This document shows positions 2,885 to 60,584 of a DNA stretch of 64,000 bases, piece after piece. The notes beneath the pieces were generated by a model, which did not search any database, was not told the DNA's origin, and worked only from the letters and a program-made list of their open reading frames with translations. The translations under genes and the position numbers were made by a program. The stretch is taken from contig JANJGN010000022.1 in assembly GCA_026770705.1 (NCBI GenBank), positions 21,390,001-21,454,000 on the forward strand, in the 5' to 3' direction. The DNA comes from Isurus oxyrinchus (Eukaryota). Position 1 is the first letter of the stretch; each line of letters opens with the position of its first letter.

Positions 2885-3456
2885 TTACAAAAGTAATCTA
2901 TTTAGCCCATTCTGATTGCAGGAAATCTTGTTGTTTACTTGTTAGTGCATTGATTGAATTAAGTATTTAAATCAGTGAACTACTTTGATCTAGGATCTAT
3001 AAGCCAATGCCTTTTTCTTTATTTAAAAGTGAAACTAAAGAAACTGTTTAAAAAGGCCATAGACTATACTTTTCTGGCAAGTATTTTGGCATAGGTCATT
3101 TGTAATAAGATCTGCTTTATTTGTTTGAATGTTATTATTGTAGTCCTGTTAATGCAAAACTGCGCAATGTTCAGGCTATGTCTAGTATATTAAAACCAAA
3201 ATACTGTAGATGCTGGAAATCTGAAATAAACAGCATTTTGTTTTTAAGCATATTGACATTTATTATAGGTAAAAAAAAATTTAAAGTGATGAAACATGCT
3301 CATTGCTTGTATTCACGGCATAAAACTCTGTGACAAATCTTGTCTTATTATAATCTTCTGTTACCAGTGTGATTTAGCCAGTAATTGACATTTTCTTTTA
3401 CAAATGTCACAATGCTACATGATTTCATTGCAAATTCTTGTTTCTGATGTATTCAG

Positions 3457-3476: not shown

Positions 3477-5113
3477 AGCCCCATGCTACGATCTATATAA
3501 ATTGTCATTGATATGTAAACATGTCGTTATGACGTTGTGTGCTGTCAGACTAGTCAATAAACAATTAGTGTACCAGCTTTAAAAATATTCCTACACTGTT
3601 TTAACAAAAAGTATTTATACATTAATGGGTACTCGAGGAACAGTTCCAAGATGCATTCCTTTGGAGATTATAACCTAGTAATCATTCCAAGATTTTTTCC
3701 AACGGAGCCTGTGTTTGTGTGATAATTTCATTGGCCCAATTTTAGTAAGATGACAAACTATTCCATTTCTTTTTGGCAGAGTCAGATGGATCACTGGTAT
3801 GGAAGTTCTGTGTATTTGATACCCTCAGCTTGGCCTAGCAAAAGGGTCAATGATACCAGCATTTATAGGTTAAAACCATTTGTTGGTTTGTTTATAAATG
3901 TATATCTCTTTTTTTTTTAAAAAAAGATTTTCTGTGTTCTGCTGTGAAGCATAGATGTAATTTTCAGTGAACAGTGGAGAGGATGCATTGAGGTGATAAA
4001 TGGCAGGGAAATTCTCTTGGAGCACATATGTTCCAAAATGTGGTGTCATTGACATGACTATAAACTGATTGGAAGCTGGTTGCACTCTTTTTTTCCCAGC
4101 CAAAATTAAGTATTCCCTATGCCCCCTTCAAAATATATTTGCTCTAATCAAGAAGGAAAGCAGGCAATCTGTTTGCTGGCTCTGACAGTGCTGCACTTGT
4201 GCTAGCTTTTAGGTTCGACATGAGTGGTAGCAATTGACTTGTACAGTTTTTCCTCTGAACGTGAAACAGTGGCTAAATCCTTATGGTACTGATAGATCTA
4301 CAAATGTGCTTTTAACCCCTATGTAGTAAACTGAATAAAACAATGAATATTATACTTTTGTTTGTATAGTTGTCTCAGCAACCGATCACATTATGTAGTT
4401 TTGCTACCAGCATATAAGTGCAATAATTATATATTCACTCAGCCTACTTTGTGATCTTGCCCTGCTTTAAGCACCCTGTTGGATTGTTTTAACCTTTTCC
4501 TCTCTGCCTGAAAAAATTTCTTGGTGCAATATTACTAATTAAAATCAAAAGACTTTAAAGGAAACAGTTACATCACTATAGGATTCCCCGAATGTAGAGC
4601 TTGAGAAACAACTCAACAGATCCCAGAATCTTAATGCCCCCAATTTGAGCTTTTCAGCAATGCCTCATTTCAGACATTACTTCATATGTTATATCTGTAG
4701 TCCCCAAATTGCAGTAACAGTTTAACCTGAAAGAAAGTGTGTAATAATCCAATCAGCTGTGAATAATTACATTTGGACTATCTCATTGTAAAGTCATAAC
4801 ATAGATTCTGATGATATTGGATATTTCAGATCTAACTTTTGTTCTCAGCTGTCCGGTATCATGTTAAGGGGTGTATTAAAATAATTTAAAATTTATGTGC
4901 AAGTGGTAACAAAAAAAAAAGCCAATGTCTAAAGTTCTCTCGAAGATCTAACGATGGTTGCCAGTCAGATGTGCTGGAACTTTACAAGTTTGCTGGAGAT
5001 CTTGCTTATTCAAAATTTGCTTAAAAGAATAGCAAGCTACAAGTTAGACTTAGGTCTTGGGCACCCCCTTCAGTGCAAGCCTGTCAGTAAGGTCTTTTTA
5101 AGCAGGTGCTATG

Positions 5114-5804: not shown

Positions 5805-5925
5805 TGATTGTCAGAGGAAATGTCATTGATCTGAAACGTTAACTCTGTTTCTGTCTCCGCAGATGTTGCCCGACTTGCTGAGTATTTCAGATTTCCAGCA
5901 TCTGCAGTATTCTGCTTTACTATAC
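5805..5925 (+). mobile_element. Penelope-derived terminal fragment (family B), decayed hammerhead region
   Basis: ctgaaacgttaactctgtttctgtctccgcagatgttgcc...gctgagtatttc, shared with 7388, 30400, 35460 and 63600. Confidence 0.75.
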
Positions 5926-13906: not shown

Positions 13907-16437
13907 CCACCAATTTTCTTAAGTTTTTGCTATTTTGAAAACTTCAGTTAATTTCTAAGCTTATCCCTCAATGAAAAAGACACCTTTTTTAACATCTGTT
14001 TTAATAATTATAATCTCCTTTTCCTGGTATACCCGAGACAGAGGTACAACAAAGGCTGAATTCAGGATATCAACAACATTGTTCGACTCACTGGTAAGTT
14101 AAGAACAGGTAAGCTATCTATCGAATTTCTCCGCGGGTGTATTAGACCCAAGGTTGTGCCACTGTTCATTTCCAAGTTTATTGATAATGCTAAAGTGAGA
14201 CACAGTCCTACTATAGAGCGAGCATTTATGCAGGTTGAGACTGAACTGAGTGATAGTAGGGTTACTAATTTATGCCATGTCCTACACTGTGTCTGGCCCG
14301 AGGTACGCAAATTTCTTTCATTTTTCAATTTGATCTGTGTGCCACTATTTTGCCTCAATAGATGACCACACGATAAAAAATGCATGCTTGAAACATGCCT
14401 GCAATGTAAACTCACTTAGGCGGAAGTGGTTTGGCACTGCAATTAATGACGCCGCCAAATACTTAGTCAAGATCTCTGACCATGCACTCTGAAAATAAGT
14501 AGTTTGTTCTCACACATGGCTTCAATTTTAGTGTGCCTTCGTCCCACATCAAACAGGAGTTCATGTTTGCTAAGCATAAACTCCTCTATTCCCAGCTATC
14601 CTGCCACAAACCAACGTCCAATGAAGACGATGAGTTCTTGAAAGCACACCGAGCTGATCTAGTGCACACATATTGCGGGATACCCAATGACTTAGCCGAT
14701 TTTCACATGCATCACAAATATCTGGTAGCATCGCAAGGCCTCAAGGGCAACCTAGATTTACATATCTGTAAGCCTGACAAAGGAACTGGAGTAGTCATGC
14801 TTAACAAGCATGACTATGTTGACAAAATGCAGGCCATTCTTAATAATGGGTCCAAATTTGTACTCTTTGGACCTGCTGCTAAGCATGATCGCACAGCCCT
14901 GTTTGAAGGCAAGTTACAAAAACGCTTATTGGCCTTGTGTAAGATTAACAAGTTGCCTGATTTTTTATATGTTAGGATTCAACCTCACGGTTCACTGTGT
15001 CCGCACATGTATGGGCTTCCCAAGATGCACACAAATGATGCCCCTTTATGCCTTATCTTATCCATGACAGATTCTGCATAAGATGAATTGTCTGAATGGT
15101 TGAGCAAGTTGTTACAACCAGTTCTGAGCAAATTTTCCACATGCACGGTGAAGGACGTCTTTGCAAAGACCATACAGGACTTGCATATCGATAGTAATGC
15201 CGTGTCCATATGCTAGTTCAACATTGCTAGCTTATTCACTAATGTGCTGCTCAAGGAATTTGCACCATATTACTATATCATGGTGATCTTGACATGCCGC
15301 CATTTTCTGAATCCGTATTTATTAAACTTATGAACTCAGCAACTTGCGCATAGATGATACGTTTGCTATATTTGAATCTGTAGCTGCATGTAAGAATTTC
15401 CTTACATCAATGAGCTCCATCATGCGCTCCAATTCACCATTGAAATGGAGCAGTCAAATGAGCTCCCTTTTCTTGATGTGCTAGTTCAGAGATCTGCCAG
15501 TGGGTTATCTACTACTGTCTACCACAAGCTCACCTTCACTGGTGACATACTTGCTGAAATTCCTGCAGTTCCATATGCTATAAGATTGGCCTTATCAGCA
15601 TCCTGGTAAATGGGGCCTGAGCCGTTTGCTCACAGCGTAAGCTTGTTGCGGAAATAGGGCGCATCAAAACTATCCTGCAGGTAAACGGCTATTGTGCAAA
15701 CTCATGAATGGGCCTAAGGCCTCCATGTTTGGACCTGAAGGGTGCTCAATGTACATCAGATTATCCTGGAAGGATAAGCTGTCTCAAAAATTTGAGCAAC
15801 ACATAAAGCTAGTCATTTCACCTGCTACTATGCAGTAGCAACACGAGCCCTAATTTCCACTAACAGGATGCTGCCAAAAACACGTTCTGCCTACCACACA
15901 AATGAGCCATATGGCATATGAATTTCAGTGCTGGTGTGATGCCAGGTATGTAGGCCGCACATCCCGATGACTGATGGATTGTATCAAACAGCATGTCCCT
16001 TTGGTTGTTTGCAGCAGGCAAAGTACTGATGTACTCAACCAGCCTATGCTTGCAAAACTCAAAACATGGTGTCCAACACGAGATGTGATTCCATAATTGG
16101 AGAACAGTTACTATGCAATCCCGATTGTGCTAAAAATTGCACTAATGACCAATTTGGAGTTCAGTTGGGCTCAGTGTGGCTTCTGTATGTGTACTGGAAG
16201 CTACACACAGGACCCTGTCCTTTGCAAACAGAACATATCCACGCATTGTACCTTATTCAGCAAAACCATTCCCTGGTTCATTTCCCAATGCAATTGATCA
16301 ATCAGAGTTGTCTAGCTTGGTTTGAGTTTGAACAAAAACTTCGCAGTTAACTGTTTCCTCCATGCATTCTCCATGGCAACACCTCTGCCAATCAGAGTCC
16401 ACTTGCCAACCAATTAGCACCCTCTTTTCTTGCAGTA

Positions 16438-43124: not shown

Positions 43125-43985
43125 TTCAAGGCTTGCAAATGACACAAAATTTGGAAATGTATTAACAGTGAGGAGGATAGTAACAGACTCAGGACACAAA
43201 CAGACTTGTGAAACAGGCAGACACATGTCAAATGAAATTTAACATGCAAGCGTGAAGTGATGCATTTTGGAAGGAAGGTTGAGGAGAGGCTGTATAAACT
43301 AAATGGCACTATTTTTAAAAGAGATGCAGGGACAGAGACCTGGGCATGTACAAACACATCTTTGATGGTGGCAAGACAAGTTGATTAAAGCTTTTTTTTA
43401 AAGAAAAACAAAGGATTTATAAAGCCAAAGAGGCATAGAGTACAAAACCAAAGAAATTATACTAACTCTTTATAAATAATTGGCTTGGCTGACCCCAGCC
43501 AGAGAATTATTACCAATTCTGAGCGCTGCGCTTTTGGCAAGTATGGGGAAGATATCAACAAGATTTACCAGGGTAGTATCAGAGATGAAGGACTTTTGTT
43601 CTCCTTGGTACGTAAAGGGTTATGGGGAGATTTAATAGAAGTGTTCAAGATTCTGAGGGGTTTTGATCAACTAAATGGGGAGAAAATGTTTCCACCAGAA
43701 GGAGGATTGGTAACCAGAGGAGACAGATTTAAGATAATTGACAAAATAATGAGGGGAAAGATGCGAATTATGCAGCAAGTTATGATCTGAAATTAATTAT
43801 TTGAAAGGGTGCTGGATGCAGATTCAATAGTAACTTCCAAAAGAGAATTGGATAAATATTTGAAATGCAACTAGTTGAAGGGCTGTACAGGGAGAACAAA
43901 AAACTGGGATTAATTGGATAATTATTTCGAAATACGGCACAGGCTTGATGTGCCAAATGGTCTCCTGTGCTGTAAGATCCTGTAC
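43125..43985 (+). mobile_element. CR1 3' fragment
   Basis: GLFSL...LWGDLIEVFKILRGFD...TRGDRFKI is typical of the CR1 ORF2 end; aatggtctcctgtgctgtaa tail. Confidence 0.85.
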
Positions 43986-48611: not shown

Positions 48612-48767
48612 TTCAGAACAGTGTACTTAAAGAAGCTGGTGATGATCGAGATCGTCTGAAGTTAGAGAAGGGTGCTGTAGAACAACCTCAGATAAAGGTC
48701 CCAATAGAGCCACCTGAAGAAAGTAATGACAAAGGCGCGGAAGTACAGCTGGATCGTCCCAACCAAG
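48612..48767 (+). CDS. SLC38A10: SLC38A10 exon (VQNSVLKE...QLDRPNQ)
   Basis: ttag acceptor, AG|gtactg donor, 156 nt, phase 1-1; EQPQIKVP and QLDRPNQG match recalled human EQAQIKGP and QLDRPGQG. Confidence 0.92.
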
Positions 48768-49960: not shown

Positions 49961-50416
49961 GGGTTGCTCATCCAGTGGGAGAGGCTCATCGACATGAACC
50001 ACCCATCCCACATGATGAAGTCATTGTCGATGAAGGAAAGGATGGTGACGAATCAAATGAAAAGGAGCTCCCAGCAGTGAAAGCTAAGCAGCCAAATGAT
50101 GAGGGGAAAATCAATTTTAATGAAAAGATGAAAGAATTGGAAGAGGAAAAGATGGTTAATCCAGGATTAAAAGAGCAGGGAAAAGAAATGGTCGACCACA
50201 TCAATGACGCACCAGCGGTTGATTCAAAACAAAGGGACCAGCCAGGCAAGGTGGCACCGGAGATGAACATTCAAGGTGCAGTACCTCAACCAGGTGTAGA
50301 ACTGCATCAGCAAAAGTTAAATGATAACCATGGCAAAGTTCCTGGAGGAGAAGATGCAGTGATTCATAACCCAGAAGGGAACGTAGAAAACATGAAGAAC
50401 AAAGAGTTGGAAAATG
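49961..50416 (+). CDS. SLC38A10: SLC38A10 exon (GVAHPVGEAHRHEPPIPHD...)
   Basis: ttctttgcag acceptor, G|gtaagc donor, 456 nt, phase 1-1; PVGEAHRHEPP.PHD is a hallmark conserved SLC38A10 motif. Confidence 0.95.
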
Positions 50417-52055: not shown

Positions 52056-52193
52056 GTAACAAGAGGGATTTGCCAGCCCTGGAAAATGTTGGTGCAGCTG
52101 AAGTGCCACAACCACATGTCCGTGATGAGAGGGACAGTGAAAATGCAATTTCAGAAGAAAAACAAGATGGAAAACCAGCTGAAGGAGGAGAGG
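52056..52193 (+). CDS. SLC38A10: SLC38A10 exon absent from the ORF track (GNKRDLPALENVGAAEVPQPHVRDERDSENAISEEKQDGKPAEGGE)
   Basis: Pyrimidine-rich tract plus ttaag acceptor, G|gtgagt donor, 138 nt open in the required phase-1 frame; P.P..RD.E resembles the recalled human PPEPREQRDVE segment. Confidence 0.85.
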
Positions 52194-53229: not shown

Positions 53230-53397
53230 ATGATGAAAAACATATGGATCATATAGTTCTATTAAACGTGATTAAAGAACAGCAAGAACAGCAGAAGCGA
53301 CTTTTAGACCAACAAGAGAAACTGTTAGCCGTCATTCAGGAACAACATAAGGAGATCCACCAGCAAAGGGCTGATGATGAGGACAAAGGACAGCAGG
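53230..53397 (+). CDS. SLC38A10: SLC38A10 exon encoding the conserved Gln-rich coiled coil
   Basis: tgcag acceptor, G|gtaaga donor, 168 nt; [40 protein letters not shown] nearly identical to recalled human sequence. Confidence 0.96.
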
Positions 53398-54368
53398 GTA
53401 AGAGTCATTATGAAGAACAGAATCAAACTAAGCAATGCTTTATCATACTGGGAATCGCTACTTCAATGGAGAGATTCATCAGGACATTCCTTAATCTGGA
53501 TCACTTTTACTGATTTATTTGATATGAGGGAAAAGATTGAGACCAACTACTCAACTTTTTATTGATGTCACATCAACTTGTCATCAAAGTTGCTTAATGC
53601 TATAAAAGAAGTGGCAGATTCCTTAGCATTAGAAATCAAAAGTAAACTTTACATTATACCCTGAATTTTTACCTTTTTTGATATATAGCTAGGTACTAAA
53701 ATATATTATACTACAATATATTTTCCTTTAAATAATCCATCATTAGTGTGTGAGCTTTATAAAATAAGCATAAAAGAGCTGTTCAGATTTGCAGTATATT
53801 ATTAGCTCTCAGTTGTATATTTCCCATGTGAATTCAGTGACATTTTTCTGTAAAAAGAGAAAAGAAAGGTAATCATCAATATTTGATAAACTGCAGTAAG
53901 TACATTGAACTAAGTACTTCATTACAATCAGTCTAATTTAAGAGGCATCTTAAAATATATAGTGATTACGCTAGCAATAATATTTCTTCATTATTGGCCA
54001 GTTCTGTGCATGATGTGATATAGTATCAATGCTTTATCACAGTTCTTGTATTCCTCATTCCCATCGTTTGTCATAACCACCACATCAAGATAGTCATGGA
54101 GGGAAGTATTAACACTTTGTAACATTATGACTATTCATAAGCATCTAAGTATCATACCCATGTTACCTTAAGTTCTATTGGAGCAAGATATATTTGAAAC
54201 ACTGTCTTGCACTTTTCACCATTTTAACCTTTTTGATTACCTCACAACCTTGCAATATGCTCCAGCTTAGCCATTATGTGGGCTCCTCAAATGTACACCA
54301 GTTTGGAATCCTTCTCTTGAAGTAGTATCTGCTCTGGTGATCATGAAGCATTTTTACTTTGTGACATA

Positions 54369-54538
54369 TTTGCTGAAGAAAGACATTTTGCTGAAGCTTT
54401 TTGTTTTGCACTCATCAGGACAATCACAAGAATACCAATGTCAAACCTTTGATTGTCCTGATGAGTGCAAGATGAAAAGCTTCAACAAAATGTCTTTTTT
54501 CAGCAACGCTTAAGTTCTATGCTACCAAATGACTATTA
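54369..54538. mobile_element. Palindromic Penelope family A mini-element with two opposed hammerhead motifs
   Basis: Inverted arms spanning 54370-54506; 8-bp TSD GTGACATA at 54361-54368 and 54539-54546. Confidence 0.85.
54453..54488 (+). ncRNA. Minimal type I hammerhead ribozyme motif (partly decayed)
   Basis: ttgtc CTGATGA gtgcaagat GAAA agct TC aacaa: core intact, with two CpG-type changes in stems I and II. Confidence 0.6.
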
Positions 54539-55564: not shown

Positions 55565-56793
55565 ATGGTGAAAACCCCGCGAAAGAACAGGCAGGTAAAG
55601 AAAATGAAGATCAAGTAAAAAATGTTGACCCTCTGAATGGGCAGAAGGCAGAGAAGCCTAATGCTGATTTCCAGGGTGACGCTCCTAAACTTGGTCAGGA
55701 TCTACCAGCAGCTGACCATGATAAGGATGGTGTTGAACCTAAAGATACTTTGCAACAAGCTCAGGGCAATGTCCCAGAAAACCAGGATCAAAATCATGAC
55801 TCCAAACAGGATGGTGAAATTGGAGCTAATGTCGAAGCTCTCAAAGTTGCCCCTCAGTCTAGAGATAAATTTAAAGAAGTCATCCAAAAAATTGGGACTT
55901 CAAACCTTTTCTCAAAGGGCAAGGAAGTTGAAAGGGTGGTGCCACAACCTGATGCTAAAGTCCCAAAAGTTGTCCAGCATGATGAAGGAGCAAAAGCTTC
56001 CCAAGAGCATGGGGTTAAAAATCCAAATGTTCCCTTGGAGAATGAGGTCAAAGTTGAAAGGGAAGGACCCGAAGCTGGAAATAGAAATCCAAATGTCCCA
56101 AATAATGGGGCCAAAGTCCCGAAGGTTTCTGAAGATCTCGGTATTAAAGCAAAATCAAAAGACGAAGTTCATAAGATTGATTCCAAAGTTGACACCAAAC
56201 CTTTAAAAGCTGAGCAAGTAGAAGAACATGGGAGTGACGAGAAGAATGGGAAAGTGAAAGTCAGGGATAGAGGTGCATTTCAGGAAAAGCCTAACCAGCC
56301 AGGTGGACATATTGAAGATGGGAAGGAAAAGATCCATTGGCCTGTGAATGCAGGTAAAGTTCAAGGAGGAAATTTTATTGACAGAGCACAAGAGCTTGAT
56401 GAAAGAAAAATTGAGGAAGATGTAATGAAAAGTCAGAGAAAAGAGAAGGTTTTAGATGAAAACATTGACCTTCAGCATATGGACCCAAATGCACCACCAA
56501 AACACAAGGAAAAGAATCCAAGCCAGAAGGATGGTGAACCATACAAAGATTTGAAACTTGATGGAGGTGGTGACCTTCGTAGAAGGAAGAGAGACTTAAG
56601 GTCAAGTATGGAAGAAAGCTATCAAGATGACAGTGGTAAATTGATCATCAGCCTTGATCCAGTGCCAAACTTTAAGACTGATAATCTCCGAAGTGCACTG
56701 GAGAGCCAACTGAAACAGGTAGCAGGAGCATCATTCCAGATAGTTCAGAGCCGAAAGATAAAGCAAGTGACAGATACAGAAAAAGATACGTGA
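55565..56793 (+). CDS. SLC38A10: SLC38A10 last coding exon
   Basis: tttttcttactttatag acceptor, open to TGA at 56791-56793; C-terminus DLKL...DLRRRKRDL...IISLDPVP...NLRSALESQLKQVAGASFQIVQSR matches recalled human DLKL...DLRRRRRDL...IIGLNPLP...DLRGALDAQLRQAAGGALQVVHSR. Confidence 0.96.
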
Positions 56794-57995
56794 TTCAACT
56801 AATCTGTTTTCCAACCCATCACATTTCTAGAAGAAGCCTATTTTGAAGTTTGAATAACATGTCTCCTGGATGGTATCAAGTTACCTTGGTGTCCTATATG
56901 CATCTTATACAGTGTCATGTCTGCATTGCATTGTGTGAACAAAACCCACTTAAAGCAGATGAATTCAATAGGACTTCAAGAAGAATTCTGAAATAACAGG
57001 CCAAAAGAATTCAGAGAAAAGCAAATAGTTATCAGAATTTAGTTACCTGCTGAAATAATGAATATTCTACAAGGAGATTAACCAATAACTCTACCTGCGT
57101 AGCTCAGTATACTACTTGTACTGAAAAGCTGATTACCATAAGGCATTGCACATCCAGGAAATTCTAAAGGAAGTGACTGTGAATTACAGGAAACTTCAGT
57201 TCCTGTCATTCTGTGCATCTGCAACCAGAAGCAACCAAGAATGAATGAAAATGACTTTGCTATTGGAATTCTGACAGTTAGATGTACCGTTGATTGTATG
57301 AAAGTCTGTTTCAAACATTGGAAATGCCATTACTAGTGTCTTCTTTTTCCTCTCAGGGCAACAAGCTGTTTCATTGTAAACAGTAGGCTTTTTGTTGTAT
57401 GGATTTCTAAATGGTTGTTCATTAGGGCAGTTGATTGTGTATTTTAATGTAAAGATTTATGCAGTTAATGCCTAATTTGTTTACATGTGTGTACGAGAAA
57501 CTCCTAGACCTACACGTTATAATGGCTGATTTTTTCAAAATTTGATTTCAAAGATTTCAACTTTTCCAGCTAAAATAAACCAACTCAGCACCTTTCATAT
57601 TTTATGCTTTAAAATATGGTCTGTTCTCTTAACTTTCAACATTAATTCTAATTAAGCACATTGAATTTTACTGGAGTTGCACCTTTAGTAATTTTGATAC
57701 TGTGAACCCTGACTAAATTATTCGACAATGTAATTTTTTGCACATATTCCATCTTAGGAGGGGTTAAAGGTGCAATATTTAATTGTGGCCCTTTCCCTAA
57801 TATTTTTGTACAGCGTACTCATAAACAAGACTGTATAAGTCATCTGTAAGTCCACAAAATGGAGACTAGTTAAGATCAGTGTACTTTTAAATAATCTAGA
57901 ATAAGGTCCTCTACGCAATGATTTTTCCCTCATGTTCATTTGTACAATACATTTTTATGTATTTTTTTTAATAAAGAATTAACTTTTTTTTAAAG
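56794..57995 (+). other. SLC38A10: SLC38A10 3' UTR (end approximate)
   Basis: Repeat-free AT-rich sequence after the stop; AATAAA at 57574 and 57970. Confidence 0.65.
57970..57975 (+). terminator. Likely main polyadenylation signal
   Basis: AATAAA preceded by TGTA motifs and a U-rich tract, followed by U-rich sequence. Confidence 0.65.
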
Positions 57996-60584
57996 TTGCC
58001 CTTATGAATTGACCTCCCAGTTTGGCTGCCATTTTTAATTGTAATTTGAAAACTTGGGTTCTCAAATCTGACTGATCATGAGATTCCACAGCTGTTCAAT
58101 GGAAATATGTAGCAGTTTCAGGATCAGTGATAAAACGTCAAGTGTCCACACCCACCCTGCAGAAATGCATTAAGGACAGGAGAGCAGATACCATTTTTTT
58201 AGGCAAAGGCAGGGAAGTAAATTTATATAAAAATATATAATAGAATGTATCTTAAAACATAATCATAGGTCTGCTGGAGTACATCACTGTTCAAATAATC
58301 CCATGCTGCTGGTGCCATCAAGTTATTCCCATTTAGAGGCTTCCCATAGATGTAATTTATTAATATATTAAAAAACAAACTACAAACATCTAATGTTGAA
58401 AGTAACCAGTTTATATAAACTCTGCACACTTGTAAATAATAGTATTAAAGCATATAGTATGATGCGTTCTCTGTAGGGCTAAGAATAGGTAGTAGGTTTT
58501 CAATTGCAGAACCGTCTTTGTTACAATGTCAATTTTATTTATGAAAATTGATCAGGTCAGAGGACCAGGTTATTGTAAATATCCAAATTAATGTGGCCTA
58601 AACATAGTCACTATTTGTGCAAACATTTTTAGGCCATTGACATTTTCCAATGACTCAACTTTCTAGCACATCACCAAATCAAAAACATAACCAGTAGCTG
58701 AATTTTTCTTGAAAAATATTTACGTCCTATTCATATTTAAATGTTATAATAGCTGGTATCTGGTCACTACCGGTGCTCTAAGGGATCAAAGGTTAAAATT
58801 GTCCATGTACCAATTATTGTTGTTATCTCTGTCTCATTTTAAATGTACTTTAAGTTGATGCATGTGTTTTTCGGTATTTATCTTGCAGCAATGTTACAAA
58901 ACTGTAGGGCATCTGTTATTATCATCAGACAGTTTTCTTTTACATGAAATTATATTCTGCACCATCTCCACAAAGAGGATGAGTCTGCACCTAGACCCTG
59001 GCTAATGCTGCTAAAGCTACCTGATGGGAGATGAGCTGTATTTGTTGCCTTAGCCTTTGGAGTTCCTTGTGTCCTGTAAATAAGTGCCTGAGTTCCACTT
59101 GATGCCTTCTCTCGAGGTCCAGCCAAGTTTTGTGAGCCCATCATATGGGGAGTGTAAACTATACTTCTAACTGCAGGTTTCAATAAGTACTGAAATCTAA
59201 TTCCCAAATGGTTCCTGGTATCAGTGATTGAAATGTCTGATTATTTATCACTTTTTCTATCCTTTTTGCTGTTAAAATGTTTTATTGCCTTCAAAATGCT
59301 GTATTGGGTTAAAGAATAATGAACACATTGATGAGGTCAAAAGTTAAAGGTCAAAACTTAGTCAAACTTCCAGTTTGTTGCCTCACCTGAATTTGGTAAA
59401 GTTTAGATAGTGTGTTTTTCCCAATCCTCTTAAAAGATGCTTACATTTTCATCCAACCATGCTTTTTTTAGAATTGTTTATAATTTACTGTACTATATAT
59501 TAAAAATTTTCTCCGAATGCTTGCAGTTAGGTCTTGTGTGAAATCGCAGTATCTGAAGCTGTATTCCTCAGTCAAGCTGATTCATCCTAAGTTAGATTTT
59601 CCTTCAACGAGTCATCCATCAGGTTTGAAATAAGGGGTGAATGTAGTTAAGTCCAAGAACCTACAAAATGAAACTAGATGATGGTGAAGGTGGGCTAAGC
59701 CATTGGCAGTTTAAGCTGGGGAAACATTACTGATGAGCTCAATCTAAAATAACATTCCAAATGAATATTAGCTACAGATGGAAAATGAAATGGAACATAT
59801 CTTGCAGATGCACTCTGTATTCTGTCGTCCTATTATAAATGGTTGGTTTAACAATAAAGTGCAATTAATAAAAACATCTGGTATGGATTTTTCTTCTTCA
59901 TATTTCATGGAATGTTGCTATTGGGTAGTAGCAAAAAAATATTACTATCTTATCACTGGATGAACTGTGGTTCACTGAGCAATTTTCATCTAATTAATTT
60001 GTAGTGTAAGAATAACATTAATAGCCAAACATGAAATAATCATATCTTATTCATGGTGTTGATGATAACAAACTTGCAGTTGTTACTTAGGAGTTACTTA
60101 TATAAATCCTATGCTATGCATTTTCATCCACATAGACCTAGCTATTCCTTAATTAAACATCACTGAAAATTTTAATGATTTGAAAGTCGTGTTTCCTGTC
60201 CACACCCAAGAGTGAAATAAAAGCAAAACTTTATTCTACACATTAAAAATTTCAATTGCTGGGTTTTTATTTTGGGGATGGTGAGGGGTGGGGTGGGACA
60301 GATGATTTCAAAAAGCATTTTGAAAGAAAAGTAATTGATTTGTTCATTCTTTTCTTGGCTGGTTCTCAACTGATCTCGAGATTGTCTATTTTCATAAATC
60401 GTTGGTCATTTCTCATTAGCTGTTTCAAGCTAATTTTGATTTGTACATACCCTGCCTTGTCACTTATTTACTACTGTACTAATTTGCACAAATCAACAAA
60501 GTGGTAACCACAACAGTGACAGGAAGAAACTGACACCTCCAGGATATTCATGCAGTATGTATTTTTAATATCTTTAATAAGATG

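Follow-up and report, generated by a model that had tools for sequence, protein, structure and literature searches.

Granins and prohormones are acidic, disordered, O-glycosylated luminal chains with conserved islands and basic cleavage sites, and GOLM1/GP73 is a Golgi protein shed by furin. CASC4/GOLM2 and GPP130/GOLIM4 are Golgi membrane proteins whose luminal domains are shed into the medium by PC7/furin (PMC7441151); CASC4, GPP130, and GOLM1 are all single-pass type II proteins that are cut beside the membrane and lose the whole luminal domain. A long terminal extension also regulates a member of the SLC38 family, SLC38A9, through an N-terminal plug (title of PDB entry 7kgv), which is cytosolic and not cut by a convertase. 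In human and mouse, SLC38A10 (SNAT10) has 11 helices and a tail of ~720 residues; both the helices and the outside position of the tail were predicted for the human protein (PMC5458457), which sits in the ER and Golgi (PMC6940841). This tail is a stated puzzle, for which signalling has been suggested with no mechanism (PMC9017388). A plasma fragment of SLC38A10 has been reported (Hashimoto 2019, PMID 31524172), tail peptides have been detected in mouse serum (PMC9364151), and the protein is listed among those of brain interstitial fluid (PMC9855636).

The window analyzed here, a stretch of 64,000 nucleotides of the shark Isurus oxyrinchus, contains the end of a gene that is an orthologue of SLC38A10: its best matches are SLC38A10 proteins, in which Aa_trans (PF01490), the sole Pfam match, is joined to a long tail. 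Only one match to it was found in its own genome. Like CASC4, GPP130, and GOLM1, SLC38A10 is a Golgi membrane protein with a luminal part that a convertase would release; in contrast to them it is polytopic and would lose just its last 66 residues. Since the site is placed ~680 residues past the last helix, classification as a shed protein of the CASC4/GOLM1 type was rejected. The piece in question is the luminal C-terminal end, which also distinguishes it from the SLC38A9 plug. As in granins, the SLC38A10 tail is acidic, disordered, and O-glycosylated, with conserved islands and a basic site, and the earlier note had regarded it as a granin-like, prohormone-style precursor. This proposal was not supported: SLC38A10 has no soluble signal-peptide precursor, it is ubiquitously expressed, it shows one conserved convertase consensus instead of many, no granin match was found in Pfam, and the predicted peptide contains neither an amidation signal nor a cysteine and is variable at both ends. 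A granin or prohormone polyprotein was also rejected because, of the six dibasic places in the shark tail, those conserved are RRRKR and one KR in the coiled coil, and a granin relationship because Pfam gives Aa_trans alone and a profile search finds SLC38A10 ends apart from two spurious matches.

Six exons of SLC38A10 are present in the window, all on the plus strand, separated by five GT-AG introns and forming one continuous open frame. The first one (196-349) encodes the last (11th) transmembrane helix and the start of the luminal tail and shows a 100% tblastn match to residues 375-426 of the orthologue P0001, the earlier exons lying upstream of the window. Four tail exons follow: 48612-48767, whose end opens the first conserved island (protein match, spliced contigs, frame, and alignment); 49961-50416, which carries the PVGEAHRHEPP motif of this island (49972-50004); 52056-52193, weakly conserved (protein match, spliced contigs, and frame); and 53230-53397, which contains a conserved long helix predicted as a coiled coil (53241-53369). 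The last coding exon (55565-56793; 1,229 bases), of which 56545-56793 is the end, codes for a disordered charged spacer of ~330 residues, the convertase site, the predicted released peptide, and the stop. Its product best matches shark SLC38A10 proteins, at 98% over the last 89 residues (basking shark) and at 95.6% over the whole exon. The 3' untranslated region (56794-58300) extends past 58300, as contigs continue without a break from 55564 through and beyond this position. The four tail introns were crossed, all or some, by spliced contigs from three studies; the sequencing runs behind these contigs have no RNA label on record, and the contigs are spliced all the same. A single 6,895-base contig holds both the last transmembrane exon and the final exon, indicating that the convertase site belongs to the full-length transporter.

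A tail-less isoform had also been put forward. In one contig of a related species, position 349 is spliced to 3780 with a GT..AG joint, which would define an alternative terminal exon on the plus strand (3780-4778) inside the 48-kb intron; given the acceptor and the frame at 3780, the protein would end 19 residues later and would have no convertase site. The joint has a 27-letter overhang on its short side and a depth of 10 vs. 87, so that this candidate exon weakly suggests such an isoform. Most of the 103 shorter SLC38A10 proteins are incomplete models or models with a different ending, and they have no common end. The frame of the coiled-coil exon runs 38 codons into the intron (53398-53513), and P0015, a cartilaginous-fish protein of 710 residues, ends in a similar read-through, which suggests a form that would retain the coil and lack the convertase site; this read-through was absent in the contigs of four runs, contigs that show presence only. 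In a bat model (P0163), the end of SLC38A10 is fused to a protein called Tepsin, probably a mis-joined neighbor. Two broken frames in the long intron (14503-15606 and 43236-43787) resemble retrotransposon remnants. Short high-copy repeats, matched by many unrelated contigs at high depth, were observed at 54394-54506, 3190-3230, and 5820-5920.

The region 56545-56598 reads KDLKLDGGGDLRRRKRDL and includes RRRKR at 56578-56592 (plus strand), with a predicted cut after 56592; 66 residues follow from 56593 (56593-56790) up to the stop at 56791-56793. Coordinates and codon count were those claimed by the earlier note. The furin prototype is R-X-(K/R)-R, and Leu at P2' is favorable (PMC8310232). Judged by its residues, the shark site matches this furin-type substrate consensus and has compatible P1' and P2' positions. 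When the shark tail was shuffled 10,000 times, 14.5% of the shuffles held an R-x-K/R-R motif somewhere; therefore a single site is not rare by itself, and it is conservation that beats chance. Among the 120 proteins listed of 1,162 matches in a search with the transporter domain only, the 112 with the downstream module, scored with a profile leaving out the basic residues, all keep R-x-K/R-R at the homologous place, as expected for the conserved canonical convertase site that had been proposed. The module is missing in the other eight, which are shorter or differently ending models, including a 989-residue bichir "isoform X1." Once profile hits were added, the motif was found in 153 of 153 proteins, 48-77 residues from the C-terminus, 41 of them having been retrieved with a profile that itself contains the motif. 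Birds are overrepresented in the sample, whose related sequences are not independent. By comparison, 13 such motifs were found elsewhere in the tails in 76,365 residues from 123 long proteins. Site carriers include, among fishes, chimaera, sharks, rays, reedfish, paddlefish, bowfin, teleosts, coelacanth, and lungfish and, among tetrapods, axolotl, frogs, squamates, turtles, crocodilians, birds, marsupials, pika, and puma. The age of the cut is about 450 million years.

Substitutions at the site follow the consensus. Arg is invariant at P4 and P1, Arg and Lys are swapped at P3 and P2, P1' is occupied by D, E, A, or S in 153/153 proteins and P2' by L, V, or I in 150/153; the Asp-Leu on the N-terminal side of the basic cluster equals the basic residues in conservation. 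In an alignment of 67 vertebrate rows, weighted identity was 0.86 at the site vs. 0.29 in the preceding spacer, whose best 9-residue window reached 0.46. The same calculation gave 0.86 for the transporter domain, 0.84 for the PVGEAHRHEPP island, and 0.88 for the coiled coil. After the site, identity was 0.31 over the next 12 residues, 0.58 in a core (LIISLDPVPNF...NLRSALESQLKQ; 56641-56718, plus strand), 0.76 in IVQSRQIKQ, and 0.29 over the last eight residues. Conservation had been said to resume after a poorly conserved spacer and to run on through a helix; the first part was borne out, but the second was not, given the low identity of the 12 residues after the cut. The human sequence given in the earlier note, DLRRRRRDL, fits record P0144, which reads DLRRRRR|DL. 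A profile of the module run against 1.84 billion representatives gave 47 matches, 45 of them SLC38A10 ends and two spurious. None of the 47, many of which have no species name, was recognizably jawless or invertebrate; since vertebrates rank first in searches, the apparent restriction to jawed vertebrates reflects the limit of detection. One distant, incomplete-looking orthologue, probably non-vertebrate (P0279; 47% identity in the transporter part), has both the HRHEP island and the coiled coil, so these two look older than the peptide module.

The tail had been assumed to be luminal, and the evidence agreed with this. Hydropathy stays below 0.24 past residue 400, with no hydrophobic segment after helix 11, and the human tail is predicted outside, as described above. 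Moreover, the supplement of PMC11402288 lists O-GalNAc sites in mouse, six in all, the first at S429 and the last at S1047. Within the predicted piece, the S1047 glycopeptide falls at residue 22, indicating that in mouse this piece passes through the Golgi lumen. This glycosite, from mouse, shows that the convertase site faces the secretory lumen. On the Pfam result, the glycosite, and conservation, a cytosolic tail and a nuclear-localization reading were rejected, as was granin membership. AlphaFold models the tail as disordered except for a helix at 682-727 (pLDDT ~85-88), which is that of the coiled-coil exon, and a weak helix at 1110-1121; the transporter part was modeled with low confidence.

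Evidence for cleavage came from a human CSF peptidome, in which undigested samples were searched with no enzyme for peptides of up to 65 residues at 1% FDR (PMC12340150). Its table contains eight S38AA rows, two of which were examined here; one is a 46-residue peptide from DLGPHAEG to QAAGGA (PMC12340150). The 44 residues that follow RRRRR in P0144 are the first 44 of this peptide, which therefore starts at P1'. This confirmed, for human only, that a released peptide begins at the residue that had been predicted. Cleavage at the site thus happens in people, on the strength of one CSF table row, and we infer the same cut in the shark. Three internal single arginines are uncut in the 46-residue peptide, which speaks for an enzyme specific to multibasic sites rather than for general trypsin-like attack; alternatively, a trypsin-like protease in CSF could have produced an N-terminus after Arg. 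The peptide has a ragged C-terminus and is without the RQ motif. It is one row, absent from the quantified table, whose sole S38AA row is a different one, so it may be scarce, and the text of that paper makes no mention of SLC38A10 (PMC12340150). The second CSF peptide, of 33 residues and from another part of the tail, was quantified and was not significantly changed in ALS (PMC12340150); its origin indicates that the tail is also fragmented more widely.

Other published data bear on processing to different degrees. An antibody to the mouse N-terminus detected ~110 kDa vs. 116.3 kDa calculated (PMC5458457), which weakly fits the loss of 7.0 kDa, a difference that gel mobility cannot decide. 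A C-terminal eGFP fusion was visible in the ER and Golgi (PMC6940841), and an uncut pool therefore exists. No SLC38A10 peptide rows were found in the parts searched of the supplements of PMC8918473 (one small file), PMC4857386, and PMC6823850; in those of PMC9584923 there was a protein-group row alone, with no peptide rows. A full-text literature search with four peptide words gave no match.

The predicted peptide is acidic (~7.4 kDa and pI ~4.6, computed on P0001, which is 98% identical), and across orthologues the piece has 48-77 residues, with a median of 65. It is devoid of an amidation signal and of cysteine, and both its termini are variable. Pfam gave nothing for it at E up to 1, a PDB sequence search with the module profile and a fold search with the peptide model gave no match, and ESM Atlas gave no usable match for the chicken protein, peptide, or whole tail. 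In a fold search with the low-confidence full-length model the top row was SLC38A9 (E 0.03). A complex prediction of P0001 1-510 (transporter domain and first island) with the peptide, run without alignments, scored 0.00 and speaks neither for nor against a luminal plug. An amphipathic-looking helix had been proposed for this region. The amphipathic character was found to be moderate (moment 0.35-0.41 vs. a tail median of 0.27 and a 95th percentile of 0.52), but the helix itself is short, of low confidence (pLDDT 55-67), and predicted just for about NLRSALESQLKQ (56683-56718), where AlphaFold has its weak helix. The conserved residues of the peptide lie on one face of this short helix and in RQIKQ. 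S-M-E is found at 56605-56613, five residues past the cut (S-M-D in basking shark), and the FAM20C pattern is S-x-E. SLC38A10 has been named as a FAM20C substrate (PMC12721910).

Based on the features of the site, a furin/PC7-type convertase likely cuts RRRKR|DL in the trans-Golgi or later. The acidic piece of ~7 kDa would then leave by constitutive secretion and not, we infer, by way of granule storage. What is selected at this position is probably cleavage and release, together with a role that is non-hormonal or still open. For that role, we tentatively consider the peptide a candidate cleavable binding module. While uncut, the short helix and RQIKQ, at the end of a flexible spacer of ~330 residues, would bind a luminal partner, the module probably being clustered by the coiled coil; the trans-Golgi cut would end this attachment, and the freed peptide would be trimmed and cleared. 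Since the conserved residues are internal, the ends and length vary, and an amidation signal is missing, a binding module is favored over a classical hormone.

It could also be that the freed peptide acts as a signal after secretion, in hormone-like or paracrine fashion, with SLC38A10 doubling as its membrane-bound precursor. A mature product typically shows itself by conserved sequence after a conserved cut, the free peptide reaches human CSF, the module appears confined to jawed vertebrates, and knockout mice are lighter (PMC9169716). We consider this unlikely, because SLC38A10 expression is ubiquitous (PMC9815452), the termini and length of the peptide vary, the CSF form lacks the best conserved motif, and the peptide has no amidation signal, no cysteine, and no known receptor or activity; furthermore, knockouts take away the transporter too. 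A broader scheme seems to us rather unlikely. In it, SLC38A10 of jawed vertebrates is both transporter and precursor: a furin-type cut, perhaps joined by an S1P cut nine residues from the end, would free a secreted, conserved product of ~55-65 residues, which would act as a signal to other cells or adjust a Golgi protease and would underlie some of the growth, bone, and lipid effects at present ascribed to the loss of amino-acid transport.

A role for S1P by itself was considered from the motif R-Q/K-I-K near the end of the peptide, which could be an S1P site trimming the shark peptide to 57 residues, or an S1P bait tying the transporter to SREBP/ATF6 processing. The SKI-1/S1P pattern is R-X-aliphatic-Z (PMC8310232). 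In the shark, RKIK (56752-56763), within IVQSRKIKQ (56740-56766, plus strand; the most conserved stretch of the peptide), matches this pattern in the luminal piece, with lineage exceptions elsewhere. The pattern was found in the last 22 residues of 138 of the 153 proteins (six of them through a first match at another position) and in 8% of shuffles, and the Arg of R-Q/K-I-K is invariant in a 20-row alignment. Upstream of the convertase site, the 153 proteins have RDLK (114), KDLK (18), RELK (8), RDLR (2), or none of these (11). RDLK, present in most bony vertebrates, would be a second motif of the S1P pattern, but the shark KDLK (56545-56556, plus strand) has no P4 Arg and does not fit. Less cholesterol was found in knockout cells (PMC9017388), but the cholesterol and weight effects come from knockouts that also remove the transporter. 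Moreover, the pattern is loose, Met stands at P2 in 13 of the 15 misses (rays and some birds and fish), pigeons have Glu at P1, which is outside the pattern, and neither of the two CSF peptides examined among the eight S38AA rows ends at an S1P-type motif. Taken together, these data make an S1P site or bait quite unlikely. KR(LL) in the coiled coil (53295-53306; identity 0.98 and 0.66) resembles the RRLL of S1P with Lys at P4, is not a furin consensus, and may be structural.

Finally, it is very unlikely that DL-RRRKR-DL is kept as an uncut binding surface and that its cleavage belongs to the incidental turnover of a disordered tail: the Asp-Leu on the N-terminal side is conserved like the basic residues, further fragments of the tail are present in CSF and serum, and C-terminal GFP is visible in cells, but invariant Arg at P4 and P1, Arg-Lys swaps at P3 and P2, and convertase-compatible P1' and P2' in all lineages argue for a cut, an exposed R-X-K/R-R would be hard to keep uncut in the Golgi lumen, and the observed N-terminus is exactly P1'.

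A transporter-plus-secreted-peptide system had been called unrecognized by the earlier note, which is correct in part. The outside tail and the serum and plasma tail fragments are already in print, but the site and the peptide were not found there: no paper on either was retrieved in a search that had subscription journals, UniProt annotations, and some supplements outside its scope. Thus the gene, its topology, and the shedding of tail fragments are known, and a defined conserved cut and its product appear to be new. The conserved cut and the matching human CSF peptide turn the puzzle of the SLC38A10 tail into a direct test, in which transport and tail processing would be separable via one arginine mutant. 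C-terminal tags and antibodies would miss mature SLC38A10, and the origin of the SLC38A10 "fragments" used as plasma markers needs defining. Should the peptide prove active, a secreted signal would originate from a polytopic transporter.
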